From Mobula hypostoma (Eukaryota), in the NCBI RefSeq assembly GCF_963921235.1, contig NC_086097.1, positions 42,286,001 through 42,350,000 on the forward strand: a stretch of 64,000 nt of DNA, in the 5' to 3' direction. The notes below the pieces were generated by a model. The model was given only the letters and a program-made list of their open reading frames with translations. It was not told the origin of the DNA and searched no databases. Shown piece by piece: positions 2,538-63,850 of the stretch. The stretch's first letter is position 1; the number at the start of each line of letters is the position of its first letter. Both the position numbers and the translations under genes were made by a program.

Positions 2538-5506
2538 TGTAATGCCCTGGTTAAGATTTCCACTGCTATGCTGTCCGTATTTCATTTTAGTGGTTTTATG
2601 TAAAAGCAGTGTGTTCTGCTGGTACAATGTTCTGGTTTCAGCTAAAGATAAGGAGTCATGTTGTTCAACTAAGGAATGTTGTGTCAGCTAATCAGGATGG
2701 TGGGAGCAGGAAAAATGTTCTAGAGAGAGCTGGGCTGAGAGAGATTTATGATGGACAGTGCTCAGGTTTGTGGCCTTTAGGTGGGAGATGTCAAGAGGAG
2801 AGGATCTTGATAGAATCAGAGAGGACAGGAACATTTTTAATTGGGGAAGGGCAAATTATGAGACTATCGGGCTAGAACTTGCGGGTGTGAATTGGGATGA
2901 TGTTTTTGCAGGGAAATGTACTATGGACATGTGGTCGATGTTTAGAGATCGCTTGCAGGATGTTGGGGATAAATTTGTCCCGGTGAGGAAGGTAAAGAAT
3001 GGTAAGGTGAAGGAACCATGGGTGACAAGTGAGGTGGAGAATCTAGTCAGGTGGAAGGCGGCAGCATACATGAGGTTTAGGAAACAAGGATCAGATGGGT
3101 CTATTGAGGTATATAGAGTAGCAAGAAAGAAATTTAAGAAGAGGCCGAGGAGAGCAAGAAGGGGGCATGAGAAGGCCTTGACGAGTAGGGTGAAGGAAAA
3201 TCCCAAGGCATTCTTCAATTATGTGAAGAACAAAAGGATGACAGGAGTAAAGATAGGACCAATTAGAGATAAAGATGGGAAGGTGTGCCTAGAGGCTGTG
3301 GAAGTGAGCGAGGTCCTCAATGAATACTTCTCTTCGGTATTCACCAATGAGAAGGAACTTGATGATGGTCAGGACAATATGAGTGAGGTTGATGTTTTGG
3401 AGCATGTTGATAATAAGGCAGAGGAGGTGTTGGAGTTGTTAAAAAACATTAGGACTGATAAGTCCCCGGGGCCTGACAGAGTATTCCCCAGGCTGCTCAC
3501 GAGGTGAGGGAAGAGATTGCTGAGCCTCTGGCTAGGATCTTTATGTCCTTGTTGTCCACGGGAATGGTACCGGAGGATGGGAGGGAGGCGAATGTTGTCC
3601 CTTTGTTCAAAAGAGGTAGTAGGGATAGTCCGGGTAATTATAGACCAGTAAGCCTTACGTCTGTGGTGGGAAAGCTGTTGGAAAAGATTCTTAGAGATAG
3701 GATCTATGGGCATTTAGAGAATTATGGTCTAATCAGGGACAGTCAGCATGGCTTTCTGAAGGGCAGATTGTGTCTAATAAGCCTGATAGAGTTCTTTGAT
3801 GAGGTGACCAGGCATATAGATGAGGGTAGTGCAGTGGATGTGATCTACATGGATTTTAGTAAGGCATTTGACAAGGTTCCACATGGTAGGCTTATTCAGT
3901 AAGTCAGAAATCATGGGATCCAGGGAAGTTTGGCCAGGTGGATTCAGAATTGAGTTGCCTGCAGAAGGCAGAGGGTCGTGGTGGAGGGAGTATATTCAGA
4001 TTGGAGGGTTGTGACTAGTGGTGTCCCACAAGGATCAGTTCTGGGACCTCTACTTTTTGTGATTTTTATTAACGACCTGGATGTGGGGGTAGAAGGGTGG
4101 GTTGGCAAGTTTGCAGACGACACAAAGGTTGGTAGTGTTGAGGATAGTGTAGAGGATTGTTGAAGATTGCAGAGGGACATTGATAAGATGCAGAAGTGGG
4201 CTGAGAAGTGACGGATGGAGTTCAATCTGTTGAAGTGTGAGGTGGTACATTTTGGAAGGACAAACTCCAAGGCAGAGTACAAAGTAAAGGTAGGATACTT
4301 GGGAGGAGCAGAGGGATTTGCGGGTACATGTCCACAGATCCCTGAAAGTTGCCTCACAGGTAGATAAGATAGTTAAGAAAGCTTATGGAGTGTTAGCTTT
4401 CATAAATTGAGGGATAGGGTTTAAGAGTCGTGGGGTAATGATGCAGCTCTATAAAACTCTGGTTAGGCCACACTTGGAATACTGTGTCCAGTTCTGTTCA
4501 CCTCACTATAGGAAGGATGTGGAAGCACTGGAAAGGATACAGAGGAGATTTACCAGGATGCTGCCTGGTTTAGAGAGTATGCATTATGATCAGAGATTAA
4601 GGGAGCTAGGGCTTTACTCTCTGGAGAGGAGGATGAAAGGAGACATGATAGAGGTGTACAAGGTATTAAGAGGAATAGATAGAGTGGATAGCCAGCGCCT
4701 CTTCCCCAGGGCATCACTGCTCAATACAAGAGGACATGGCTTTAAGGTAAGGGGTGGGAAGTTCAAGGGGGATATTAGAGGAAGGTTTTTTACTCAGAGA
4801 GTGGTTGGTGCGTGGAATGCACTGCCTGAGTCAGTGGTGGTGGCAGATACACTAGTGAAATTTAAGAGACTGCTAGACAGGCATATGGAGGAATTTAAGT
4901 TGGGGGGTTATATGGGAGGCAGGGTTTGAGGGTCGGCACAACATTGTGGGCCGAAGGGCCTGTACTGTGCTGCAATGTTCTATGTTCTATGTTCTACCTG
5001 AGGATCCAATCTGAAGGAGGACCCTAATGCAAGGTGTGCATCACAAGATGAAGAAATCCGTGAGGAGAAGTTCTACCTGTGATTGGTGATGAGAATTCAG
5101 TGCTGTGAGGAAAACGGTACGCCCAGCTGTCAGAGACATGACATGAAGTCCAACATTGTGTGCACATTTAAACTGGTTTGATTGTCATCTGCACTTTTAT
5201 TTTTTTCCCTTTTCCTATTGACTGGTTGATAAAGCTGAAATTGGTAAATATACTTCCTTTATAATTTTATATGGTGTATGATCTGTTATTTCTTGCCAAT
5301 TAATAATTATGTATTGGCAGTATTTACACAGCATTCACTCAGATCGAGGTTCCTTTGATCGAAATTCCCAATGTTCTTGTTTGGTTACCAAATCTTACCA
5401 ACCTGGACATATATTGTTTATGAAATGCGGCCTTCTCACTGCTGAGTAACGTGGCTGGTAGCTGAGTTAGCTAACGAGCCGAGTTTGTATACGAATCCTG
5501 GTGACA
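2538..5506 (+). mobile_element. Gypsy 3' LTR (TG...CA) split by a CR1 insertion (LTR parts ~2538-2800 and ~4997-5506)
   Basis: Starts TGTAAT right after the PPT; plausible end ...GGTGACA at 5506. Confidence 0.6.
2805..4996 (+). mobile_element. Relatively young 5'-truncated CR1 LINE (ORF2 linker, RT, C-terminus, 3' tail) with a few stops and frameshifts
   Basis: ORFs 2758-3507, 3504-3902, 3978-4163, 4438-4929: [59 protein letters not shown]; tail (ATGTTCT)3. Confidence 0.95.
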
Positions 5507-7332: not shown

Positions 7333-9892
7333 TGACCCCAGCTCTCATCTGTGCTGGGTCTTTTCCATCCCCTCTGATTTCCTCTCTCTGTGGCAGAACA
7401 TTCTGTCCTCAGTAAAGTCCTCACCTTTGTCCCACTGCGCCCACACCTTAGTGAGTTCTGTGCCCGCCATGATGCTGAGCTCTTCCTCTGCCACCTCTAT
7501 CTCCATGACTACTTCTTTGGCAAGGACTCTCCATCCCACACTGATGACCTCTTCTCCCATCTTCAACCCTCCACCTCTTTCTGGATGCCCCATTCTGGTC
7601 TTCTGCCTGCTCTGGATCTTCTTATTGCCAACTGACATCAACTGTCTCAATCTCACCACTCCTCTCTCCAATTTCAACCTCACTCTTTCCAAACACACTG
7701 CCCTCCATTCTCTCTGCACTAATCCTAATCTTACCATCAAGACCGCAGATAAGTGGGGTACTGTAGAAGTCTGGTGGACTGACCTGTACCTGCTGAGGCC
7801 CAGCGACAACTCTCAGACACTTCGTCTTACTTACCCCTCAAACAGGACCCCATTGAGGAGCACCAGGCTATTGTCTCCCACACAATCACCAGTCTTACGA
7901 ACTCTGGAGATCTCCTATCCACTGCCACCAGCCTCATAGTTCCCTCACCCCACACTTCCTACTTCTACCTCCTACCCAAGATCCATAAACCTGCTTGTCC
8001 AGGTAGACTCATTGTTTCTGCTTGTTCCTGCCCCACTGGACTCATATCTGCATACCTCGACTCTGTTTTATCTCCCCAGGTCAGTCCCTTCCTACCTACA
8101 TCCATGAAACCTCACATGCTCTGGATCTTTTCCATGATTTCAAGTTCCCCGGGCCTGAGCATCTTATTTTCACCATGGATGTCAAGTTCCTATACACCTC
8201 CACCCCCCACCAGGAAGGCCTCAATGCTCTCTGTTTCTTTCTGGACACCAAACCCAACCAGTTCCCCTCCACCACCACTCTTCTCTGTCTGGCCGAACTT
8301 GTCCTCACTCTCAATAATTTGTCCTTCAGCTCCTCCCTCTTCCTTCAAACAAAAATTGTAGCCATGGCTACTTGCATGAGTCCCAGTTATGCCTGCCTTT
8401 TTGTCAGTTAATGGAACAGTCTGTGTTCCAAGCCAACACTGGTACCACTCCCCAACTTTTCCTGTGCTACATGGACAACTGCATTGGTGCTAGTTCCTGC
8501 ACCCATGTAGAGCTCTTTGACTTCATCAACTTTGCCTCCAACTTCCATCCTGTTTTCAGATTTACCTAGTCCATTTCTGACACCTCCCTCCCCTTTCTTG
8601 ATCTCTCTGTCTCTGTCTCTGGAGACAGCTTATCTACTGATGTCTATTATAAACCAATTGGCTCTCACAGCTACCTGGACTATACCTGTTACTTGTAAAA
8701 ATACCATCCCCTTCTCTCAGTTCCTCCATCTCTGATGCATCTTCTGTCAGGATGAGGCTTTTCATTCCAGAACCAAGGAGATGTCTTCCTTCTTCAAAGA
8801 AAAGATCTTCCCTTCCTCCACCATCAATACTGCCTTCAACCGCATCTCTTTTATTTCGTGCATGTCTGCCCTCAACCCATCCTCTACCACCCCTCCAGGG
8901 ATAGGGTTCCTCTTGTCCTCACCTACCACCCCACCAGGCTCCACGTCCAGCACGTAATTCTCCGTGACATCCGCTATCTCCAACTGAAATCCCACCAGCA
9001 AGCATATCTTCCTCCCCCCCTCCCCCCACCACAACTTTCTGTAATCTGCAGGGATTGTTCCCGACACAACTCCCTGATCCACCCGTTCCTCGCCACTGAT
9101 CTCCATCCTGGCACCTGCCCCTACACCTCCTTCCTCACTACCAGTCAGGGCCACAAATAGTCCTTTCAGATGAGGTAACACTTCAGCTGTGAGTCTGTTG
9201 GGGTCATCTACAGTATCCGGTGATTCCAGTGTGGCCTCCTGTATATCAGTGAGAACCAGCATAGACTGGGAAACTGCTTCACCAAGCACCTACGCTCCAT
9301 TTGCCAGAAAAAGTGGGATCTCCAACTGGCCACCCATTTTAATGCCACTTGCCTCTATTCCAACATGTCCATCCACGGGCTCCTCTACTGCGGCGATTAA
9401 GCCATATAAGGAGCAACACCTTATATTCCATCTGGGTAGCCTCCAACCCGATGGCATGAACATTTATTTCTCAAATTCCAGGCAATGCCCCCCATTCCCC
9501 TTTCCCTATTCTTTCCCTCTCTTGCCTTATCTCGTTACCTGCCCATCACCTCCCTCTGGTGCGCCCCCTTTTCTTTCTTCCATGGCCTTCTGTCCTCTCC
9601 TATCAGATTCCCCCTTTTCCAGCTCTGGATCTCTTTCAGCAATCAATTTCCCACTCTTTACTTCACCCCTCCCCCTCCCAATTTCACCTATCACCTTGTG
9701 TTTCTTCCTCCCCTCCCCCCACCTTCTTACTCTGACTCCTCATCTTTTTTTCTCCAATCCTGATGAAGGGTCGAGGCCTGAAACATCAACAGTACTTGTT
9801 TCCATAGATGCTTTCTGGCCTGCTGAGTTCCTCCAGCATTTTGTGAATGGTGCTTGGATTTCCAGCATCTGCAGATTTTCTCTTGTTTGTGT
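7333..9892 (+). mobile_element. Penelope-like element (Neptune-type), long decayed copy: N-terminus, RT, thumb, GIY-YIG, pLTR
   Basis: SVLSKVLTFVP, IKTADKWG, FTMDVKFLYTS, YMDNC (decayed YIDD), KNTIPFSQF, RDRVPLVLTYHP, EQHLIFHLGSLQPDGMN; TSD ca(a/g)atattttcttc at 7319-7332 and 9893-9906. Confidence 0.92.
9756..9791 (+). ncRNA. Degenerate hammerhead motif in pLTR
   Basis: CTGATGA-agggtcgaggcct-GAAAC-ATC; stem I and stem III palindrome decayed. Confidence 0.55.
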
Positions 9893-22900: not shown

Positions 22901-24839
22901 TTCTTTTGGTTCCCCTGCTCAGAAACCATTCTGGAAATGATGTTACAAAAACTGTGAGCATTTGTAACACAGCCGTACTTTTTGCAAAGCAAGTTGTGAA
23001 ATAACAACAAGTAATAATGGCAGTGGCTTTGCTAAATGGAACGTAATTCTCAGAGATGAACATCACACCATTTTATCACTCTATCACTATGCACAAAGAG
23101 AAAGAAATGATCTGACTACAAAAGGTGTAATAGTTCATCCTTTAAGTCTATTTTACAATTGCAAGACACTGCTGGTAATTCAGAACATCATGTACTCCTG
23201 ATCTACCCCATTAGTGAGTTGCTCAATAGCGATGGACTTGGACTTGTTGTACTGTTGTAGTGTTGTTGGCTGAATTTGTTGCATACTTTTATTGTACCGA
23301 GGTGGTGCATGGTCCATAAAAAGGTACGAGTGATTGTATTGGACATTTTTCCTGTGATTGCAAGACCTTGTTGGATACTGGTAATGGAGAATACTGCAAG
23401 TGTAGTTCACTGGTTCATTGGTGAGACCTGCAACGAGGGAGCTGCGTTGCCCCGGCTGTGTTGCGGACTTGGTCCTCAAATTGCAGGTCACCTGTTGCAG
23501 CCCTCTAAGTGGGGAGACACTGTAGAAGAAAGCAAAGACTTTTGTGAGTGTGCTGGAGTTGGGGTCTACCCTCCAGTGTTCACTTGGTGGAAGAACAAGC
23601 AGGACCAGGACAACATCCCACGCACCATCATTCTACAGGCCATGCCATTCAGGGATTTGGACTATATTATTTATTCTTTGTGACTGTATGTTTTCTGCTA
23701 TCTTAACCATACGTGCTATGTGCTGCATGCCGTGTGCTGTTGGTAATGTGTTTTGCTACTTGGCCCCAGTGGAATTCTATTTCGTTTGTTTATGTTCATA
23801 TATGGTTGAATGATAATTAAACTTGAACTTGAATCTTCTCCATGTTTCTTCAAAATCCATGTAAAACCAAACATCTTATCTTCACCCTTGAAAGTAATGG
23901 TGGAGGCGTGATGGAACTCAAGATTCAAGAATCAAGATTGGTTAATATCATTTCCAATACACAAGTGTAAAAGAGTATGAAATAATAGTTGAAACTTTAA
24001 AAATCAAAACTCAATTGAAGTATTCATTTTTTTAAACCCACTCTTCTGGGCTTAAGAAAATGAATGCTAAGGTTCAGTTTTATAACATGGCTGGTATACT
24101 TTGATTTTATCTGCTTTACAGGGTTAAACCTTGATCCTTCTGGTTTTCTAGATGTAGAAAACCCAAATGCTGGATCTGTTCACTATTCAACCAGCCTATG
24201 AGCCCCACTCCTATACCAATATGGCCATCCAAGTTCTCACTTTGCTTCACAAAGGGCAGGAATGGAGCAACCTTCTACCTCACCGACAGCACTTTTTCTA
24301 TTCTCACAAAAGCAACAGCAGGTCCATTTCCTCATCTTCAGTTTCCACCTGCATAAATCCTGCTCAGCTGAAAGCTTGACTTACCCATTAGGCTGGCCAG
24401 AACAGTCCACTCCATTGACTCATGCAGGATAACAAATCTTGCAATTGTCTTGATGGAAGCCTCTATCCTTCATCCACACATACAAACATTCAAATATTTT
24501 GCTTTAAAGTGCACAGTTTCCTAATAAGTCCTTTCTCCCTGCCATGTGATTGGTTAGTTATTCAGTATATTCTTATTGATACTTTATTGGATGCCAGTGA
24601 TTGTACATAATTTCCCTCTTATTGGAAGAATAGCAACAGGGTTTCCTGCTGCTCGTGGTTGTCCCACGCACCAGCCAATAATCACAAGCTTTCCAAACCA
24701 CAAGAGATCGAAATCTGCAAAAGTGGAGGGTGAGTTATGAAAAAAAAATAGAAACTGTGTTTCTCTGAAACAGTTCCAGTTAGATCCATGATTTGTTTAG
24801 GGACGGTGAAGAAAAATGGCATGCGAACGAATTATTCTA

Positions 24840-25159
24840 CGAGGGGTAATTGATAAGTTCGTGGCCTAAGGTAGAAGGAATCAATTTTAGGAAACCTAGC
24901 ACATTTATTTTCCAACAAAGTCCCGCCTACATTTACACACTTAGTCCAGCAGTTGTGAAGCTTACGGATCTTGGACCTGCAGAAAGTGTCCACAGCAGGG
25001 GTGATTGATAAGTTTGTGGCCTAAGGTAGAAGGAGATGAGTTCTACAGCTCTTATTACATGCACATGCAGTTCAATGCTTTGAGTGATTATGCAGAAAGT
25101 TTGAAGTTAATAACTCATCTCCTTCTGCCTTAGGCCACAAACTTATCAATCACCCCTCA
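24840..25159. mobile_element. Mariner-type MITE with TA TSD and an internal third TIR copy
   Basis: TA|CGAGGGGTAATTGATAAGTTCGTGGCCTAAGGTAGAAGGA ... TCCTTCTGCCTTAGGCCACAAACTTATCAATCACCCCTCA|TA. Confidence 0.9.
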
Positions 25160-25604
25160 TACATACTAGCTGGACTAAAAATGACCATGAGAAATCCGAC
25201 TCCTAACATATCATTGGAGGGTTACAAATACTAAAAAAAAAGGTTGCTTCACAAATTCCATCCCTGAGTGGTATTTGCAGAATTGTTTTGCAAGTAATTC
25301 AATAGGAGGAATAGATATATATTCAAATCTTCTTAGAGCCACAGTAAAATGAGTTAAAGGCAGATATCAAGGATCATCTTGCATAGATTGAAAGGGATAA
25401 ACAGACTGGCAAAAAAAAGCGTGAGCTGCAAGCAATGAAAATTTCATTATTTCTCCTTTCCTGCTCCTCAGGAAAAGATCAGAACACTAACTTTGTTTTT
25501 TGTAGGTATTCAGCTTCCTGATTGCTCTCATCCAAGCAAACAGAGAATATTCCATTGAATTTCGGACTTATACCTGCATTTCATGAAGAGACTATGGGAA
25601 AAAG

Positions 25605-26105
25605 ACTTAGAAGATTGAGAGGAGATTTGATAGAGATATACAAAATTATGAGTGGTATAGATAGGGTAAATGCATGCACGCTTTTTCCACTGAGGTTGGG
25701 TGATACTATAACTAGAAGTCAAATCACAAACCGCAGATGCTGGAAATCTGAGCAATACACATAAAATGCTGCCTGGTCTGCTGAGTTCCTCCGGTATTTT
25801 GTGTGTGTTGCTACAACTGGAGGTATTGGGTTAAGGGTGAAAGGTGAAAAGTTTAAAGGAAATATGAGGAGTAAGTTCTTCACTCAGAGTGTTGTGAGAG
25901 TGGGGAACGAGCTGCCAGCACGTGGTGCATGTGAGCTGGATTTCAAAGTTTAAGAGAAGTTTAGCTAGGGACGTGGATAATAGGGGTATGGAGGGCTATG
26001 GTCTCAGTGCAGGTCACTGGAAGTGGGGAGTGTAAATGGTTTGGCACAGACTAGATGGGCCAAAGGGACTGTTTCTGTTCTGTAATTTTCTATGATTCTA
26101 TGACT
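25605..26105 (+). mobile_element. CR1 3' fragment with a mini pLTR fold-back inserted at ~25721-25810
   Basis: RRLRGDLIEIYKIMSGIDRV; degenerate TSD ctataactagaagt / ctacaactggaggt. Confidence 0.8.
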
Positions 26106-43291: not shown

Positions 43292-44329
43292 TTAAGTATT
43301 CTGTTTTAGTAACATTAATGGAGGATGAACATCAGTCTGAAAGTAAGGGATAACTCACCACACTATCATGAAGTCTTTCATGGTCATTTCAAGACCATGA
43401 AGCCAATTTGGTAAAATATCTGAAAACTCAATTCCTCTGACAGTTTAACAATCTTTTGGTACTGGAGTGCTAGCACCAAGTTTTGGAACAAGCCTTTGGA
43501 GGGACACTTAAATCCACAATCCCCTAATTCAGAGCTAAGTTTATCATCAACTCATAGGCAACTGATAGCATTATATAAGAAGTCTGTAAAAAATTCTCTA
43601 TATCTATATAGATGAAAGCATTCTATTTGTTTTAATCTGAATGGTAATAGAAATACATTGGGAATAAGAAATGATCTATAACAGAATTGTGCTGTGTTTT
43701 TGCTTTGACCCAACTTTCACAATACAACAGAGCTCGACAATTCTGCTGATAAAACAAAGCATGCTTGTTGTATTCTTGGAATAAGCTTTTAAAATAAATC
43801 AGTCACCAGCAATTTGATGCACCGACTTTGAAGAAGAAAAGCTTTATTATCTACAGTTGTCAGGGAGAAGCAGCTTGTTTTTGCAAATCAGAAGCATATC
43901 TCCATTTGAAAATTACTGTATCATGTGGTTATTTACTAGTTTAGCATATCAATGGCCAACAGAGGCAATATAAGCATTTAAGGGTTTACAGTTTTTGTGC
44001 TGTTGAGCCTGAGATCTGCAGTCTCATACGTTGTGCTCCCGAAGTAAATAATGGGCTCCTCCAATCCCCCTACCATTTAAGTGAAAACAAAACCCTCTGT
44101 CTGCACAAGAGATCAACACTCAAGATAGCCATTTCTAAACGCTCTCCGTGGAGAACCAGTTGTGTGTCCATTATTCCGGCCAGTGCCCCACCTCAGTGCT
44201 TCTTGTGTTAATCACCTCAGACTTCATTTTCCTTGTTACTAGAAAATAAATTGGGGCTGGGGGTTGAATGAATGTGATTCTATGGTAGAGCAGAAGAAGT
44301 CAGGTGGAGAATGGATCTTTCTATAGGTA

Positions 44330-44400
44330 AGCACAAGAGATTCTGCAGAAGCTGATGCTGCCTGACCTGCTGAGTTCCTCCAGAGTTTTGTGTGTGCTAC
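44330..44400. mobile_element. 71-bp Penelope pLTR fold-back mini-insertion
   Basis: Inverted pLTR terminus joined to a sense pLTR piece; perfect 14-bp TSD tctttctataggta at 44316-44329 and 44401-44414. Confidence 0.85.
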
Positions 44401-44905
44401 TCTTTCTATAGGTACCAACTTAGTAAATTTATAAATGGCTTTATTACAGTCTCCGAGGTATAGCAAAAAACCAGTCTTGCGTACCATCCATACAGATCAA
44501 TTCATTACAACAGTACACAGAGGTAGCAAAGGGCAAAAAAAAACAGGGTGCAGAATAAACCATTACAGTATACAGTAATAATCCACAGTGCAGGTAAACA
44601 ATGAGGTGAATTGTAAGGTCGAGAGTCCATCTTGTCATGCCAGGGAGCCATTCAATAGTGCTATAACACAGGGGTAGAAAATAGAAGATATTCTTGAGCC
44701 TGCTAATAAGTGCTTTCAGTATTTTGTATCATCTGCTGGATGGGAAGAGGGAGAAGAGAGAATGTCTGGGGTGGGTGAGACCTTTCATTATGCTCCATGA
44801 CCTACTGAGGCAGTGAGATCTGTAGAAAGAGTTCATAGAGGAGCAACACACATCAAAGTTGCTGGTGAACGCAGCAGGCCAGGCAGCATCTCTAGGAAGA
44901 GGTAC

Positions 44906-44941
44906 AGTCGACGTTTCGGGCCGAGACCCTTCGTCAGGACT
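44906..44941 (-). ncRNA. Minimal type I hammerhead ribozyme, intact core
   Basis: Reverse complement AGTC CTGACGA A GGGT-CTCG-GCCC GAAAC GTC GACT: stem I AGTC/GACT, stem II 4 bp, palindromic ACGT stem III, GUC cleavage triplet. Confidence 0.85.
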
Positions 44942-46184
44942 AACTGAAGGAAGAGTTAGTAAGAGATTTGAAAGTGGGAGGGGGAGGGGGAGATCCAAAA
45001 TGATAGGAGAAGACAGGAGGGGGAGGGATGGAGCCAAGAGCTGGACAGGTGATTGGCAAAAGGGATATGAGAGGATCATGGGACAGGAAGCACAGGGAGA
45101 AGGAAAAGGGGTTGGGGGGGAAACCCAGAGGATGGGCAGGGGTTATAGTCAGAGGGACAGAGGGAGAAAAAGGAGAGAGAGAGAAAGAATGTGTGTATAT
45201 AAATAAATAACGGATGGGGTACGAGGGGGAGGTGGGGCATTAGCGGAAGTTAGAGAAGTCAATGTTCATGCCATCAGGTTGGAGGCTACCCAGACGGAAT
45301 ATAAGGCGTGTTCCCTCCAACCTGAGTGTGGCTTCATCTTTACAGTAGAGGAGGCCGTGCATAGACATATCAGAACGGGAATGGGATGTGGAATTAAAAT
45401 GTGTGGCCACTGGGAGATCCTGCTTTCTCTGGCAGACAGAGCGTAGGTGTTCAGCAAAATGATCTCCCAGTCTGCGTCGGGTCTCGCCAATATATAGAAG
45501 GCCACATTGGGAGCACCTCCTCCTGTCCTCCTTTTGTGAAGAAAGGGGCTTCCCTTCCTCCACCATCAACTCTGCTCTCAAACGCATCTCCCCCATTTCA
45601 CGCACATCTGCTCTCACTCCATCCTCCCGCCACCCCACTAGGAATAGGGCTCCCCTGGTCCTCACCTACCATCCCACCAGCCTCCGGGTCCAACATATTA
45701 TTCTCCGTAACTTCCGCCACCTCCAACAGGATCCCACCACTAAACACGTCTTTCCCTCCCCCCCCCACTTTCCGTAGGGATCGCTCCCTACGCGACTCCC
45801 TGTCCTTGTCCATTCGTCCCCCCCATCCCTCCTGGCACTTATCCTTGTAAGCGGAACAAGTGCTACACATGCCCTTACACTTCCTCCCTTACCACCATTC
45901 AGGGTCCCAGACAGTCCTTCCAGGTGAGGCGACACTTCACCTGTGAGTCGGCTGGGGTGATGTACTGCGTCCGGTGCTCCCAATGCGACCTTCGATGTGG
46001 CCCCTCTCCCCCTTTTCCTTCTCCCTGGGCCTCCTGTCCCATGATCCTCTCATATCCCTTTTGCCAATCACCTGTCCAGCTCTTGGCTCCATCCCTCCCC
46101 CTCCTGTCTTCTCCTATCATTTTGGATCTCCCCCTCCCCCTCCCATTCCCACTTTCAAATCTCTTACTAGCTCTTCCTTCAGTT

Positions 46185-46220
46185 AGTCCTGACGAAGGGT
46201 CTCAGCCCGAAACGTTGACT
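46185..46220 (+). ncRNA. Minimal hammerhead, intact core with GUU triplet
   Basis: AGTC CTGACGA AGGGTCTCAGCCC GAAAC GTT GACT. Confidence 0.75.
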
Positions 46221-47942
46221 GTACCTCTTCCTAGAGATGCTGCCTGGCCTGCTGCATTCACCAGCAACTTTGATGTGTGTTGCTTGAGTTTCCAGCATCT
46301 GCAGAATTCCTCGCGTCGTCATAGAGGAGCAGCTGGTTTCCATGATGTGCTGTGTCCACAACTTTCTCCAGTTTCTTACAGTTGTGGGCAGAGCAGTTGC
46401 CATACAAAGCCATGGCACATCAGGACAGGATGCCTTCTATGGTGCATCAATAAAAATTAGTGACCGTCAAAGGGGACATACCAAATTTCTTTAGCCTCCT
46501 GAGTAAGTAGAAGTGTTGGTGAGCTTCCTTACCGTCAATATGGTTGGAACAGAATAGGCAATTAGTGATGATCACTCCTAGAGACTTGAAATTCTCAACC
46601 CTTTTGACCTCAGTACCGATGATGCAAACAGGAGCACGTGCATTGCCCCCTTCCTGACTCCAGTGACCAGCTCTTTTATTTTGCTGATATTGAGGGAAAC
46701 ATTTGGTATGTCCCCTTTGACCCTCACCAATTTTTATTGATCTACCATAGAAAGCATCCTGTCCTGATGCATAACACCCTGTTACTAGCCTCTCTATCTC
46801 CTCCCTGTTCTCTGACTCATTGGTATTTGGGATAGAGTTTCATCTGCAAACTTGTTGATGGAACTGGAGCAGAATCTGCTCACACAGTTATGTATGTGTG
46901 TGCAGGGCGTAGAATAGGGCCCAGAGGACACGGCCTCGTGGGGCACAAATTTTGAGAGAATAACCATGACAGAGGTGTAGCTACCTATCCTTACTGCTTG
47001 TGGTCTGTTGATCAGGAGGTCAAAGATATAGTTGCAAATGGAGGTGTTGAGTCCCAGTTTTAGGAGTTTGGAGATGATTTCACTTGGAATTATAGAAATA
47101 AAGGCAGTGCTGTAGTCAATAAACAATAGTCTAATGTACAGTGCTTATAAAATGTATTCACAGCCCCCCCCCTTCATGTTTTAGTGTTTTACAACATTGA
47201 ATCACAGTGGATTTAATTTGGCTTTTTTGACACTGATCAACAGAAAAGACTCTGACATGTCCAAGTAAAAACAGATCTCTACTAAGTGATCTAAATTAAT
47301 TAAAAATATAAAACACAAGATTACTGATTGCGTAAGTACTCACCCCCTTCAAGTCAGTGTTTAGTAGGTGTACCCTTGGCAGCAGTTACAGTCTTGAGCC
47401 TGTATGGGTAGGTCTCTATCAGCTTTGCACATCTGGACGCTGCAAATTTTCCCCATTCTCTTTTATAAAACTGCTAAAGCTCTGTCAGATTGCATGGAAA
47501 TCGTGAATGAACAGCCCTTTTCAGGTCGAGCCACAAATACTTAATTGGATTGAGGTATGGACTCTGATTTGGCCAATCCAGGACATTAACTTTGTTGTTT
47601 TTAAGCCATTGCTGTGTAGCTTTGGCTTAAAGCTTAGGGTCATTGGCTTACTGGAAAACAAATCTTCTCCCAAATCACAGTTCTCTTGCAGACTGTTTCA
47701 GGTTTTTCTCCAGGATTTCCCTGTATTTTGCTGCATTCATTTTACCCTCTACTTTCACAAGCCTTCCAGGGCCTGCTGCAGTGAAGCATCCCCACTGCAT
47801 GATGCAGCCACCACCATGCTTCACGGTAGGGATTTTAAAAATGTAAACACCAGGAATTCTGCAGATGCTAGAAATTCAAGCAACACACATCAAAGTTGCT
47901 GGTGAACACAGCAGGCCAGGCAGCATCTCTAGGAAGAGGTAC

Positions 47943-47978
47943 AGTCGACGTTTCGGGCTGAGACCCTTCGTCAGGACT
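47943..47978 (-). ncRNA. Minimal type I hammerhead ribozyme, intact core
   Basis: Reverse complement AGTC CTGACGA AGGGTCTCAGCCC GAAAC GTC GACT. Confidence 0.85.
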
Positions 47979-49176
47979 GGAAACAGCTTATCTACTGATG
48001 TCTACTATAAGCCTACTGACTCTCACAGCTATCTGGACTATTCCTCTTCTCACCCTGTCTCTTGCAAAAATGCCATTCCCTTCTCGCAATTCCTCCGTCT
48101 CCACCGCATCTGCTCTCAGGATGAGGCTTTTCATTCCAGGACGAAGGAGGTGTCCTCTTTTTTTAAAGAAAGGGGCTTCCCTTCCTCCACCATCAACTCT
48201 GCTCTCAAATGCATCTCCCCCATTTCACGCACATATGCTGTCACTCCATCCTCCCGCCACCCCACTAGGAATAGGGTTCCTCTGGTCCTCACCTACCCCC
48301 CCCACCAGCCTCCGGATCCAACATATTATTCTCTGTAACTTCCGACACCTCCAACGGGATCCCACCACTAAGCACATCTTTCCCTCCACACCCCCCGCTT
48401 TCCGCAGGGATCGCTCCCTATGCGACTTCCTTGTCCATATGTCCCCCCCATCCCTCCCCACTGATCTCCCTCCTGGCTCTTATCCTTGTAAGCGGAACAA
48501 GTGCTACACATGCCCTTACACTTCCTCCCTCACCACCATTCAGGGCCCCAGACAGTCCTTCCAGATGAGGCGACACTTCACCTGTGAGTCAGCTGGTGTG
48601 ATATACTGCGTCTGGTGCTCCTGATGTGGCCTTCTATATATTGACGAGACCCGACGCAGACTGGGAGATCGTTTTGCTGAACAGCTATGCTCTGTCCGCC
48701 AGAGAAAGCAGGATCTCCCAGTGGTCACACATTTTAATTCCAAATCCCATTCCGATATGTCTATCCACGGCCTCCTCTACTGTAAAGATGAAGCCACACT
48801 CAGGTTGGAGGAACAACACCTTATATTCTGTCTGAGTAGCCTCCAACCTGATGGCATGAACATTGACTTCTCTAACTTCCACTAATGCCCCACCTCCCCC
48901 TCGTACCCCATCCGTTATTTATTTATATACACACATTCTTTCTCTCTCTCTCCTTTTTCTCCCTCTGACTATACTCCTTGCCCATCCTCTGGGTTTTTCT
49001 CCCCTCCCCCCTTTCCTTCTCCCTGGGCCTCCTGTCCCATGATCCTCTCATATCCCTTTTGCCAATCACCTGTCCAGCTCTTGGCTCCATCCCTCCCCCT
49101 CCTGTCTTCTCTTATCATTTTGGATCTCCCCTTCCCTCTCCCACTTTCAAATCTCTTACTAGTTGTTCCTTCAGTT

Positions 49177-49212
49177 AGTCCTGACAAAGGGTCTCGGCCC
49201 GAAATGTCGACT
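49177..49212 (+). ncRNA. Inactivated hammerhead copy
   Basis: CTGACAA (core G8>A) and GAAAT; both are CpG-type transitions. Confidence 0.65.
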
Positions 49213-52200
49213 GTACCTCTTCCTAGAGATGCTGCCTGGCCTGCTGCATTCACCAGCAACTTTGATGTGTGTTGCTTCACAGTAGGGATGGTGTGTTTTT
49301 AATAATGTGCAGTGTTTGGCTTACACCAAACATAACATTTAGTCTGATGGCCAAGAAGATCAACTTGGGTTTCATCAGACCATTGAACCTTCTTCTAGCT
49401 GACTTCAGCTCCCACATGCCTTCTGGCAAACTCTAGCCGAGATATCATGTGAGCTTTTTCCAACAGTGGCTTTCTCTTTGCTACTCTCCCATAAAGCTGT
49501 GACTGGTGAAACACTTGGGTAAAGTTGTTCTGTGTGCAGTCTTTCCCATCTCAGCTACTGAAGCTTGTAACTCTTCCAGAGTTGTCACAGGTATCTTGGT
49601 GGCCTCCCTCACTAGTCCCTCTTCTTGCACAGTCACTCAGTTTTTGAGGACGGCCTGCTCTGGGCAGATTTACAGCTGTACCATATTCTTTCCACTTCTT
49701 GATGATTGACTTAACTGTACTCTAAGAGATATTCGGTGACTTTGGTAATTTTCTGGTCTCCATCTCCTGACTTGTGCTTTTCAATAACCTTTTCATGGAG
49801 TTGCTTGGAGTCTTTTGTCTTCATGGTGTAGTTTTTGACATGATACTGACTCACCAGCAGTACTGACCCTCCAGATACAGGTATATTTTTACTACAACTA
49901 ATTGAAACACCTTGTCGGCACACAATGATCTTCATGTAATTAGTTGTGTGACTTCTAAAACTAATTGGCTGCACCAGTGATGATTTGGTGTGTGATATTA
50001 AAGGGGGTGAATCCTTATGCAATCAATTATTTTGTGTTTTATATTTTGTAATTAACTTAGATCACTTTGTAGAGATCTGTTTTCATTTTGACACAAACGT
50101 CTTTTTCTGTTCATCAGTGTCAAAAAAGCCAAATTAAATCCACAATAAAACATGAAAACTTCCAGCGGTGGGGGGGGGGGGGGTGAATACTTTTTATAGG
50201 CACTGTCGGTGTCTTTACTCTGCAGGTGCTCCAGAGATGTGAATAGGGCCAGGTAGACTGTGTCTGATGTAGACCTTTTTCAGCGATAAGCAAATTGCAG
50301 TGGATCAAGTTTGTCCGGGAGGTTGGTGTTAATGCTTGTCATGACCAGCTTGTCGAAGCACTTTATGATAATCAATGTCAGGGGCACTGGGCAACAGTAT
50401 CTAAAGCATGCTGGCTTGTTTTTCTTAATTACTGGGAGGATAGTGGTCTTAAAGAGCCTGGGAACCTCAGATTGCAGCAGGGAGAGGTTAAAAATGCCTG
50501 CAAATACCCCCGGTAGCTGATCTCTGCAAGATCTAAGTACATGGCCAAGAATACCATCCAGGCCAGTTACTTTCTTTGGGTGGACTCTCTGGAAGATCGC
50601 TATTAACTCCACAGTGAGGACTATAAGTTCAGGTGCTTTGGTGGCTCCAGGCTGGGTGGTGACATTCTAATTCCCTACTGCTGTTTCGTTTAGTTGTATA
50701 TATCTGTACGGTTGAATGACAATAAACTTCAACTTGAACGTACATAAAATACTTCAAGCTCATCAGGAAGTGATGTGCTGTTGTTGCCAAAGCTGCCTGA
50801 CTTTGTGCTGAGGCCCATTATAGCATGTAAGCCCTGCCAGAACGGATGACTAGTGTGGAGTTCTATTGTCTGAAGGCATGCCTGATAATTTTACAGTGGC
50901 CTCAATTTCTTGTAAAGATCAGGGTCACCTGACTTGAATGATTCCTGATCAGAATTCCTGGTTCTCCTGGTTTGTCCATGGTTTCCAGTTTGGGATTACC
51001 TGGTCTGTCCTATTTGTTAGACAATCCTCAACACACTTGCTGATAAAGTCCACGATGGTGAAGACATACTCATCAAGGCTAAATGCTGAGTCTTCGAACA
51101 TGGTCTGTCAGCTCAAAGAAGTTGCATCGAAGATCACCTGTTTCCTCAGACCAACACAGTATGACTTTCTGTACTGAATCCGCCCAACTCAGCTTCGGTT
51201 GTACGCTTTGAGAAAGAGCATGGCCTAGTGGTCGGAATTACCAAAATATGGGTGGAGGGGGGGTAGATAGTTCAGTAGGCATCTTCTATAGCTGTCTAGC
51301 GTCATCAAGGGTTACCTGAAAGATGTTCCTTCCTAGAGGTAACAACCTCTACCCTTCTCTATCAAACATTTGAGGGAATCTCCTACATAACACTGGATTG
51401 TGAAATGTAAGGCCTCCATCAAAATAAAACTACGGGAGGAACTCAGAAGGTCGAGCAGAATCTGCGATGGCAAACTGATGGTCAGAGTTACGGGTCGTGA
51501 GCCTGCTTGAGGGCTGACAGATGCTGTATCTATGATCTCCATTATTTCTCTTTTACCCAAGGGGGTGGTGGATGATTAGTCACTGAGTATCTGCCACAGG
51601 TTTTTAGACATCTTGAGATATGAGATTACAAAATGGCAAGGTATGTAATGGTGGAGCAGGTCCAGGAGACTGATTAGCCTGCTCCTGCTTCCGCACTTAT
51701 TGTGGAATAATGTCCTTTCAGTGAGTCAGGTAGTTAACAATACCTTCGTATCTGAGAAGATGCACATACCTTTGAAGTCCTCAGCTAAAGGAACAACCTC
51801 ACCAATCAGCTGCTGACAGAGCAGCGTAATCAGATTTAAGATTTTGCTTGCTGTTCATCTAGAGTAGAACTTCTCAAGCAAACATGATGATCACCCTTAA
51901 TCCTTCCATTTTAAGAAAATGTAGTCAGATGCCTGACAGGTCTTGAGAATCAGAAGGGCAGAGACAGATGATCTTTACTCAATAATGTAAGCACTAAAGG
52001 ACAGCAAATGCACATGAAGGAGTTGCTAAACGCAAATTAATTTATCCCCAGTTAGTGCAAGATGTTATTGTAATAAAAAAATTAAGGCAAGTTCCGTGGC
52101 AGGCATAGCCACCCAGTGGCATATCACAGTTGATTCCAACACTAACAAGAGAAAATCTGCAGATGCTGGAAAGGAAGATTTAAACCTCCAGGTATCCCTC

Positions 52201-60990: not shown

Positions 60991-62056
60991 CACATATTAC
61001 ACCTTTAGTCTTGTATTCACCTTTATCGATTTTGTCCACCTTCTACACCTTTTTCAAGGACTTTAAGCTTACTGACACCCTTTTAGTTCAACAGTACTGT
61101 TATTCCAAAAATAAATAAATGCCGAAGATACCAGAGAGCAGGGGTTCCCAACCCGGGGTCCACAGATCCCTCAGTTAACGGTCAGGGTCTATGGTATAAA
61201 AATGGTTTGGAGGTACCTAGAGATATGTGGTCGAAGCCTAGGAAATTGGGATGTACTGGGTCAGCATGGATTCACTGGGCCGAAGGGCGTGTATCTGTGA
61301 TGTATTGCTCAATGACCCGAGACTATGGAAATGTGACTTTGAAGAATTGAATTACCCTCTGCCAAGTCTGTATTCAGTGGGCCTATCAGTTGTCTGATTA
61401 CATGCATCATTCATTGGTCAATTTAGTGAACAATTATTTCATTTAAAAATCAAAGTAGAACTTTTCAAGATAAAAATTAAGAACTTGGTTGAGTGGCTCT
61501 GGCTTGATGTAAGATTTCGAACATAATTTTGCAATATTGCCCTCATACATATTGTTACAGACAGGTTTGCAAACAATTAGATCTGTGGAAATGGTTAAAA
61601 TGAGGAGGCTGGTTCAAGTGTGGAACGAGCTGTCAGTGCAAGTGGTGAATGGGGGCTCAACTGCAATATTTAGGAGAAGTTTGGATAAGTTCACGGCTGA
61701 GAGGGGTAGGGAGGGCCATGGTCCTCGTGTGGGTTTATGGGACTAAACAGAAGGATTGTATGGCACAGATTAGATGGGCCAAAGGGCTTGTATTGTAGTG
61801 TGCAGTAGCTCTCTATGACTCAAAAACTCCATCGAAAAAATTATAATGAAGAATCATCCAAGGCTCAGTCGTATCACACTCACTTCTGAATCAAAATGTA
61901 GGTGCAAGTCCAACCTAGAGATTTGAACTGGTACTTCAATGCCAGTGTTGCTTGAGGTGTCTTCCTTCCATCTAAAACTGAGTTCCCTCTTAGGTGACAC
62001 ACATCAAAGTTGCTGGTGAACGCAGCAGGCCAAGCAGCATCTGTAGGAAGAGGTAC

Positions 62057-62092
62057 AGTCGACATTTCAGGCTGAGACCCTTCGTCAGGACT
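62057..62092 (-). ncRNA. Hammerhead copy with C>T change in stem III
   Basis: Reverse complement AGTC CTGACGA AGGGTCTCAGCCT GAAAT GTC GACT. Confidence 0.7.
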
Positions 62093-62116
62093 AACTGAAG
62101 GAAGAGTTTCTCAGTT

Positions 62117-62152
62117 AGTCCTGACGAAGGGTCTCGGCCTGAAACGTCGACT
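62117..62152 (+). ncRNA. Minimal type I hammerhead ribozyme, intact core
   Basis: AGTC CTGACGA AGGGTCTCGGCCT GAAAC GTC GACT. Confidence 0.8.
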
Positions 62153-62506
62153 GCACCTCTTCCTACAGATGCTGCCTGGCCTGCTGCGTTCACCAGCAAC
62201 TTTGATGTGTGTTGCTTGAATTTCCAGCAACTGCAGAATCCCTGTTGTTTCCCTCTTAGGTGGATGTAAAAGACCGTAAAATACTTGTTTAAGGAAGATT
62301 TGAGCAACTTTCTTTACTGTCTTGGCCAATATTCATCTCCCACTCAAAAAGACAAAACATTGATTTACCTAGAAGTTCAACTGTAGTCAATAGTGCTAAG
62401 GTTGCTATATAATCCAGTCAATGCACTGTACAATACCTCTGAAATTTCATTTCCATTGAAATCATTAAAAGTATTTTAAGGGCAGGATAAAGAGCACTGC
62501 TTTGAG

Positions 62507-63850
62507 AGATCTCGCTGAAAACCATGATAGCTTTCCTCACTATCCACTACACCCCTAATCTTGGTGTCACCTGCAAATTTGCAGATCCAGTTAACCACAT
62601 TATCATCCAGATCATTGATACAGATGACAAACAACAACGGACCCAGCACCAATCCCTGCGGCACTCTACTAGTCACAGGCCTCCAGTCAGAGGGGCAACC
62701 CTCTACAACCACTCTTTGGCTTCTCCCACAAAACAAGTATCTAATCCAATTTACAACCTCATCCTGAATGCTCAGCGACCGTAAGTTCTTAACCAGCATC
62801 CCATGCGGGACTTTGTCAAATGCCTTGTCAAAATTCCATGTAGGCAACATCTACTGCCTTGCCTTCATCAGCTTTCCTGGTAATTTCTTTGGTTAGACTT
62901 GACCTACCATGCATGAAGACATGCTGACTATCCTTAATCACGCCATGTCTGTCCAAATATTTAAATATCCAGTCTTCAGAATGCCTTCCAATAACTTCCC
63001 CGAAATGGATGTCAGACTCACCAGCCTATAATTTTCTGGTTTATGTTAGAGTCTTTCTTAAACAGCAGAACAGCATTGTCTATCCTCCAATACTCTGGTA
63101 CCTCTCCTGTCGCCAAGGATGATTTAAATATCTCTGCTAGGGCCTTGGCAATTTCTGCCTCCCATAGGGTCCCAGGGAACACCTTGTAGGGCCTGGGGAT
63201 TTATTCACCCTAATTTGCCTCAGGACAGCAAACACCTCCTCTGTAATCTAGATAGGCTCCATGAAGTTGATTCCCCTTTGCCTCACTTCTATAGTCTCTG
63301 TCCATCTCCTGAGTAAATACAGATGCAAAATATTTAAGATCGCCCCCATCTCTTTTGGCTCCATATATGGATTAACATTCTGATCTTCCAGAGGACCAAT
63401 TTTGTCCCTTACAATCTTTATGCTCCTAACGTATCTGTAAAATCCCGTAGGATTCTCCTTCATCTTGTCTGCCAGGGCAACTTCATGCCTTCTTTTAGCC
63501 TTCCTGATTTCTTTCTTAAGTGTTCTCTTGTATTTCTTATACTCCATAAGCACCTCATTTGTTCTTACCTGCCTATACCTGCTAGGCATCTCCTTTTTCT
63601 CATAACCAGCCTCAATATTTCCTGAAAACCAACATTCCCTGAACTTGTTATCTTTACCTTTAACTCTGACAGGCACATACAATCTCTGTACTCTCAAAAC
63701 TTCACTTTTGAAGGCCTCTCAGTTGCGAAGTGCACCTCTGCCAGCAAACAGCCTGTCCCAATCCACACATGACGTATCATTTCTGATACCATCAAGATTG
63801 GTCTTACTCCAATTCAGAATCTTAATCCACGGACCAGACTTATCTTTTCA
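62507..63850 (-). mobile_element. CR1 ORF2 (linker + RT), upstream part of the 58555-59514 copy
   Basis: KENPTGFYRYV, DKAFDKVPHG, VPQGLVLGPLLF, KFAGDTK, HGFQRDL. Confidence 0.9.

Follow-up and report, generated by a model that had tools for sequence, protein, structure and literature searches.

A TSD-flanked, head-to-head pair of truncated PLE ends in Mobula hypostoma, most likely built at its insertion site

An ORF-less insert of 252 bp in a 64,000-nucleotide stretch of Mobula hypostoma DNA (hereafter the window) raises the question of whether it is an isolated, extremely truncated product of a Penelope-like retroelement (PLE) or a member of an amplifying, non-autonomous hairpin family that is copied as a unit, both of which were entertained in a preliminary description of the locus. 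We conclude, with a probability of roughly 0.88, that it is an inverted PLE insertion built at this locus, i.e., a single dead-on-arrival product of an abundant endonuclease-bearing PLE.

The insert (61997-62248) is bracketed by an exact 14-bp direct repeat (61983-61996 and 62249-62262), as first described; the 14-mer has two sites within the 64-kb window, which are these two TSD copies, and it is the sole direct repeat in 61500-62800. Two inverted arms (61997-62098 and 62111-62212) of 102 nt each, 96% complementary and with 12 nt between them, correspond to the two pLTR arms of about 100 bp recognized earlier. The independent 12-nt spacer that had been placed between them is rejected, because the BLAST match of the left copy to the 44.9-kb pLTR (44846-44957, 95.5% over 112 nt) runs on to 62108, so that these nucleotides resolve into 10 nt of left-copy pLTR and a 2-nt joint. 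The description of the insert as palindromic likewise holds for the inverted arms but not for the whole, since a 36-nt tail (62213-62248), which matches tails of 38 nt in the 46.3- and 47.8-kb copies, is found on the right copy and not on the left arm. The left copy terminates at its 3′ end on the very base at which the tail-less 44.8- and 49.3-kb copies terminate, and its other end is formed by a 2-bp micro-hairpin (62102-62108) directly before the joint. The right arm is 93-97% identical to five window copies, and the right copy begins 6 nt upstream of the hammerhead AGTCC anchor. On folding, each strand of the insert forms a single long hairpin (z = -27.8 for the plus and -28.2 for the minus strand; 0 of 200 shuffles equally stable). 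The parts of the insertion are:

61983..61996, plus strand: left TSD copy (exact repeat; organisms B, C and D have one copy at their empty site)
61997..62108, minus strand: inverted 5′-truncated PLE pLTR copy, tail-less, 112 nt (BLAST and 3′-end comparison)
62109..62110, no strand: 2-base head-to-head joint (upstream comparison with four pLTR copies)
62111..62212, plus strand: direct 5′-truncated PLE pLTR copy, 102 nt (identity and alignment with window copies)
62213..62248, plus strand: PLE tail, 36 nt (match to the 46.3- and 47.8-kb tails)
62249..62262, plus strand: right TSD copy (exact repeat; empty site)

Comparison of 61400-62700 with the Logan contigs of four runs recovered the empty site that the preliminary description had proposed to look for in related organisms. 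In all three of the other organisms examined (B, C and D), contigs of 579, 481 and 686 bp, respectively, run directly from 61982 into 62249, so that 266 bases are absent and one copy of the site is retained; at the joint in organism B, 14 letters fit either side. Since the unfilled site has a single site copy in each of these organisms, the insertion and its TSD are real. The contig from organism B already shows 21 mismatches to the window flanks over about 578 letters (3.6%), and the insertion is therefore probably younger than the split from that organism. In run X1, which derives from the organism of the window itself (A), the left-flank contig stops exactly at 61996, whereas 243 letters of the 259-long right-flank contig are placed and 16 are left unplaced before 62249. 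These 16 letters are not the tail, because tail letters would have been placed, and their number equals a 30-letter overlap (for an assumed word length of 31) minus the 14-bp TSD. We therefore infer that the X1 sample carries an empty allele, probably alongside the filled one. The contig ends concerned, at 61967-61996 and 62249-62278, thus suggest that the site may be polymorphic. Precise loss of the palindrome between the TSDs would be an alternative to a young insertion in X1. Over 868 letters, the four X1 flank contigs show no difference from the window.

The parent of the arms can be traced within the window. The arms are 93-97% identical to the pLTRs at 44.9, 46.2 and 49.2 kb that terminate broken ORFs, and the broken ORFs at 45.5-46.0 and 48.0-48.9 kb end in this same pLTR. 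These ORFs, in which no intact RT of the family is preserved anywhere in the window, encode a C-x4-C-x2-C linker and, after it, a region of GIY-YIG type that contains two cysteines. As seen in the 47.9-48.6-kb and 45.8-kb frames, this linker agrees with the CX2-5CxxC pattern upstream of GIY-YIG that marks Neptune/Nematis and is absent from Penelope/Poseidon in the account of PMC8557442, suggesting that the parent has a linker of the Neptune/Nematis type, a likeness in the linker motif as the one feature compared. A direct Pfam scan of five ORF fragments returned no matches. A neighboring 108-aa ORF piece has 404 relatives among 440 candidates, the best of them named from Mobula and Hypanus, and several are proteins of 800-900 aa with RT (PF00078) and GIY-YIG (PF01541) domains.

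With a profile built from five window copies, we obtained 25 matches at E up to 1, of which 10 constitute five head-to-head pairs, each bounded by a TSD and with a tail on one end. The TSD search covered these five pairs and a convergent pair at 14.6-15.0 kb, where none was convincing. The insert under study is thus accompanied in the window by four other insertions of the same build, with inserts from 71 bp to 1.5 kb (none assigned a strand):

44833..46331: sibling of the same family; inverted tail-less copy and direct tailed copy with an ORF remnant; exact 13-bp TSD
47817..49289: sibling of the same family; short inverted tailed copy and 1.3-kb direct copy; 17-bp TSD with one mismatch
44316..44414: comparator, a 71-bp ORF-less head-to-head mini of a related subfamily; exact 14-bp TSD
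25706..25821: comparator, an older ORF-less head-to-head mini; inverted arm tailed; 11-bp TSD with two mismatches; a weaker call

The direct copy of the 47817-49289 insertion, which has 11 extra bases on its left, holds a broken ORF with the CX4CxxC linker and the GIY-YIG region. The inverted part of the 71-bp mini consists of tail alone, and its direct part of pLTR that lacks the tail (profile positions 115-139 versus 58-106); the two have no sequence in common, so fold-back copying is disfavored there, and its longest self-complement is a 10-nt palindrome within the tail. We regard this mini as the window's clearest case against fold-back copying. The 25706-25821 mini sits within a CR1-like fragment, and its arms overlap by about 8 nt at the joint. 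Compared with the 49-kb copy, the direct copy at 44.8-46.3 kb lacks about 360 bp at 45996-46001, a gap spanning the end of the nuclease region and the start of the 3′ UTR. A longer and older PLE remnant with RT motifs (7700-9890) is about 72% identical to the 48-49-kb copy and has many frameshifts and stops. Other repeats in the window include a roughly 320-bp element (24838-25161) that is bounded by inverted repeats of 42 bp, has TA at each end and one further copy of the repeat inside it, and resembles a mariner-type MITE; a 200-bp, 97% inverted duplication of CR1-like sequence (1745-1944 and 3826-4025, about 1.9 kb apart), with no TSD found at its outer ends; and a 69-bp, 91% inverted duplication (46418-46486 and 46701-46769) to the right of the 44.8-46.3-kb insertion, likewise with no TSD found.

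Each copy in the insert contains a candidate minimal hammerhead, read by hand against the description of such motifs (min-HHRs) in PMC4209133:

62056..62093, minus strand: left-copy minimal hammerhead with an intact core, G10.1-U11.1 and U15.2; cut predicted after 62061
62116..62153, plus strand: right-copy minimal hammerhead with an intact core and G10.1-U11.1; cut predicted after 62148

Besides the intact core, both motifs display a 5-bp helix I, a 4-bp helix II and one extra base after position 9, with G10.1-U11.1 in place of the conserved G10.1-C11.1; the palindromic 15.2-16.2 pair is kept in the right arm and lost in the left (U at 15.2). Rfam gave no match at the gathering score across the 64 kb, and by E-value just 10 sub-threshold generic hairpin matches with no hammerhead among them, which we dismiss as chance matches of shape. 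The earlier claim of a hammerhead on each strand thus stands for the minimal motif, which Rfam does not recognize at its gathering score. Because of the departures from G10.1-C11.1 and, in the left arm, from the 15.2-16.2 palindrome, the motifs look like decayed or variant members of their class, and their expected activity is lowered. There is one hammerhead per strand because the motif lies about 65 nt from the 3′ end of the element. Forcing hammerhead stems I and II in the hairpin costs 62.2 (plus strand) and 70.7 (minus strand) kcal/mol, versus 6.1 kcal/mol in the single-arm 46.2-kb copy, and the antisense arm is transcribed first, whichever strand is read. On this folding model, the hammerheads would be sequestered in the hairpin, and in a read-through transcript each would be buried in dsRNA and would not cleave. 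Truncation at the hammerhead cut was considered and rejected, as the arms reach 38 and 47 nt upstream of it. In the young family, the truncation points at 47978, 62108 and 62111 (three cases) all lie at most 16 nt upstream of helix I; this cluster of 5′ truncations may reflect an RT pause or an RNA 5′ end.

The arms differ from each other at 4 of the 96 compared positions (two CpG transitions and two non-CpG), and other pairs of window copies show 2-8 differences over the same positions. The preliminary description held that both arms share a variant against the five nearest copies and that they were therefore copied from one template or later homogenized. The shared variant, a non-CpG C, is real, and it is accompanied by a shared variant at a CpG site; the C also occurs in the older 59-kb copy. 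The conclusion drawn from it is not established, for it relies on this one non-CpG site, and homogenization is unneeded because the arms resemble each other no more than other pairs of copies do. The mismatch at 62154/62055, C in the right arm and T in the left, also tells against it. At 62154, T accounts for 2.0 of 6.9 million summed depth in X1, 4.1 of 10.2 million in X5 (organism B) and 94-95% in organisms C and D, T-bearing contigs being partly drawn to the left arm in these depths. The C of the right arm, with its high depth, is thus a common state in A and B and therefore not a private mutation, so that the arms may derive from different source RNAs, although this is only suggestive. A Poisson comparison of the four differences with the number expected since insertion gave P of about 0.06 under assumed rates, which is not proof. 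The contrast between organisms A and B, where the C at 62154 is common, and organisms C and D, where it is rare at about 5%, speaks for a burst of a single PLE subfamily in one lineage.

The head-to-head junctions bear on whether the insert is copied as a unit. The five window insertions have five different junctions; that at 62109-62110 occurs once in the window, with no second match at up to 5 mismatches. Neither this junction, sought in metagenome contigs, nor the pLTR motif, sought in metagenomic, viral and prokaryotic collections, gave a match, a result that carries no weight because fish DNA is scarce or absent in them. Of the 561 joints in the contigs, 15 are listed: one corresponds to the empty site, and the remaining 14 connect a left arm to a right arm in other ways, with left ends at 62023-62107 and right ends at 62117-62197; 12 of these 14 may hold letters between sides that are only 19-27 letters long. 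Thirteen of the 14 come from X1, at depths of 14.7-212.7 versus about 34 in the flanks, depth not being copy number. A cluster of joints (62068-62071 to 62117-62120), distinct from the 62109-62110 junction, recurs in 12 X1 contigs and in one each from X5 and X10 (organism D), and may be a hot spot for junctions or a mini amplified on a small scale. The abundance of the family is evident from the summed depth of the arm bins, which is in the millions versus about 34 in the flanks.

Two alternatives would set aside the locus-built insertion altogether. One is that no single event is recorded and that the locus combines two adjacent independent insertions, results from faulty assembly or is a MITE-like DNA element. 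The family is indeed very abundant, inverted repeats trouble assemblers, and no listed X1 contig spans the insert; against this, both copies lie within one exact 14-bp TSD, of which the empty site retains a single copy, the differences between the arms at four sites and at both ends speak against a read fold-back artifact, the ends are asymmetric, with one tail, and the sequence is PLE pLTR throughout. We therefore hold this alternative to be very improbable. The other, hardly more probable, is the retrozyme-like hairpin family of the preliminary description, in which the 252-bp unit is an amplifying non-autonomous element copied whole by PLE proteins. In keeping with such a family, the insert is ORF-less, flanked by a TSD and retains the 3′ region where RT starts; pLTR sequences alone sufficed for mobilization in trans in a rotifer (PMC3846280); if polymorphism persists at the site, the four arm differences imply a greater age than the flanks do; and another junction cluster does recur. 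Yet the window junctions all differ and the 14 listed contig arm joints are spread out, the left end falls on the RT start base of the element, which would not be expected from unit copying, and the stem-forcing cost far exceeds that in the single-arm copy. Retrozymes are head-to-tail tandems with canonical HHRs (PMC7229834; bioRxiv 10.64898/2026.07.22.740005), whereas in place of a tandem with at least two same-strand HHRs we find head-to-head copies with one HHR per strand, and in place of a canonical type I HHR foldable in the transcript, a minimal motif with a 62-71 kcal/mol penalty. Moreover, insertion of the anole element PAc in vitro did not need HHR cleavage (PMC11167929). With heterogeneous junctions, a head-to-head build and sequestered hammerheads, the retrozyme-like reading finds little footing, and it is equally improbable that a small hairpin family keeps this junction, with its dsRNA transcripts feeding small-RNA silencing of the parent.

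Given a locus-built PLE insertion, we consider two priming events rather than self-priming the fairly probable route. In the proposed scheme, the GIY-YIG nuclease of the element would nick both target strands 14 bp apart, a spacing taken from the TSD length, and each nick would prime its own reverse transcription. On the top strand, the RNA would be copied from an upstream start site, without tail, to yield the left arm; on the bottom strand, it would be copied from a downstream start site, with the 36-nt tail, to yield the right arm. Both cDNAs would end just beyond the hammerhead, 10 nt apart, and their ends would be joined with two extra bases. The two RNAs would probably have been different molecules and possibly derived from different source copies. 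Precedent comes from the anole PAc in vitro, where both target strands were cleaved and extended, two RT start sites bracket the tail and the protein is predicted to be a dimer (PMC11167929); by analogy, both PAc-type start sites would have been used here, and all three tail-less copies within paired insertions of the family end at the same base. At 47.8-49.3 kb, as in this insert, the tailed arm reaches less far at its 5′ end, so that each arm holds sequence that the other lacks and neither can have been copied as DNA from the other. The rival route is self-priming, in which the nascent strand would snap back at the 62102-62108 micro-hairpin and copy itself, the tail and asymmetry arising by end processing, from an antisense template or by later central deletion. 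The micro-hairpin lies exactly at the end of the left arm, and the continuation predicted from snap-back matches the observed bases except for one substitution and one missing base; PMC3846280 reads junction palindromes in this way; the arms share their two variants; the 44.8-46.3-kb insertion, the tailed arm of which is the longer, fits either model; and a later deletion at the palindrome center could give the 10-nt asymmetry. Conversely, copying the left arm cannot give the 36-nt tail and copying the right arm cannot give the extra 10 nt, the arms of the 71-bp mini share nothing to copy, and both letters at 62154/62055 are common in the family. Thus, two separately primed cDNAs appear to suit the data better than fold-back or homogenization, and self-priming is a doubtful, though possible, route to the same locus-built insertion. 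Of the earlier suggestion of an extreme 5′-truncated fold-back PLE, the truncated, inverted PLE is retained and simple fold-back is not, each arm having unique sequence. We give about even odds to the proposal that young minis of this kind stem from a dimeric PLE particle that used two RNA templates, priming them at the two nicks. A two-priming model for PLEs was not found in the literature searched, older reviews and supplements lying outside that search, and the consulted parts of PMC11167929 and PMC12910113 hold nothing on inverted insertions and on insertion structure, respectively.

The class of insert to which this one belongs is already known, and it is an extremely short, well-preserved form of a published PLE insertion pattern. 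PLEs are described as inserting with an inverted 5′-truncated copy and a one-sided 30-40-bp tail (PMC8557442; PMC11167929 for the tail) and as head-to-head copies with an 8-10-bp TSD (PMC3846280), and pairs of opposite-strand min-HHRs 100-700 bp apart have been tied to truncated PLEs (PMC4209133); as to how they form, PMC3846280 proposes self-priming on an antisense template and PMC8557442 calls the mechanism undefined. The closest counterparts are the inverted-repeat insertions of EN+ PLEs (such as Pen2a_Av from Adineta vaga in PMC3846280, with a general scheme in the legend to Fig. 2 of PMC8557442), with which the insert shares head-to-head 5′-truncated copies, a pLTR hammerhead, a 30-40-bp tail at one end and one TSD around the unit. 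It differs from the Pen2a_Av type in that its copies are only about 100-140 nt long, without an ORF or a second direct pLTR, and from the rotifer examples in its 14-bp TSD versus 8-10 bp. With the min-HHRs (PMC4209133), it has in common the type I minimal motif with a 5-bp helix I, the extra nucleotide between 9 and 10.1, the absence of a real helix III and the placement of two copies on opposite strands, but its motifs are about 22 nt apart rather than 100-700 bp. PAc (Poseidon, Anolis carolinensis, PMC11167929) likewise has two fixed 3′ ends separated by the tail and involves both target strands, whereas the parent here has the CX4CxxC linker and a hammerhead that does not overlap a start codon. 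Metazoan non-LTR retrozymes (PMC7229834; bioRxiv 10.64898/2026.07.22.740005) are also short, ORF-less, hammerhead-bearing and PLE-derived with a TSD of more than 4 bp, but they are head-to-tail tandems whose two HHRs are on one strand and mostly canonical and release circular RNA, unlike the one minimal HHR per strand held in dsRNA here.

The insert is thus a clean, dated specimen of a known class and is itself most likely inert; a role as an siRNA source or an A-to-I editing substrate, as had been raised, is a possibility only. Its value lies in the fact that two-armed short inserts with an empty site, i.e., this one and the 71-bp mini at 44.3 kb, allow fold-back to be tested against two-priming. 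Transcription of such loci, should it occur, would readily supply PLE-specific dsRNA.
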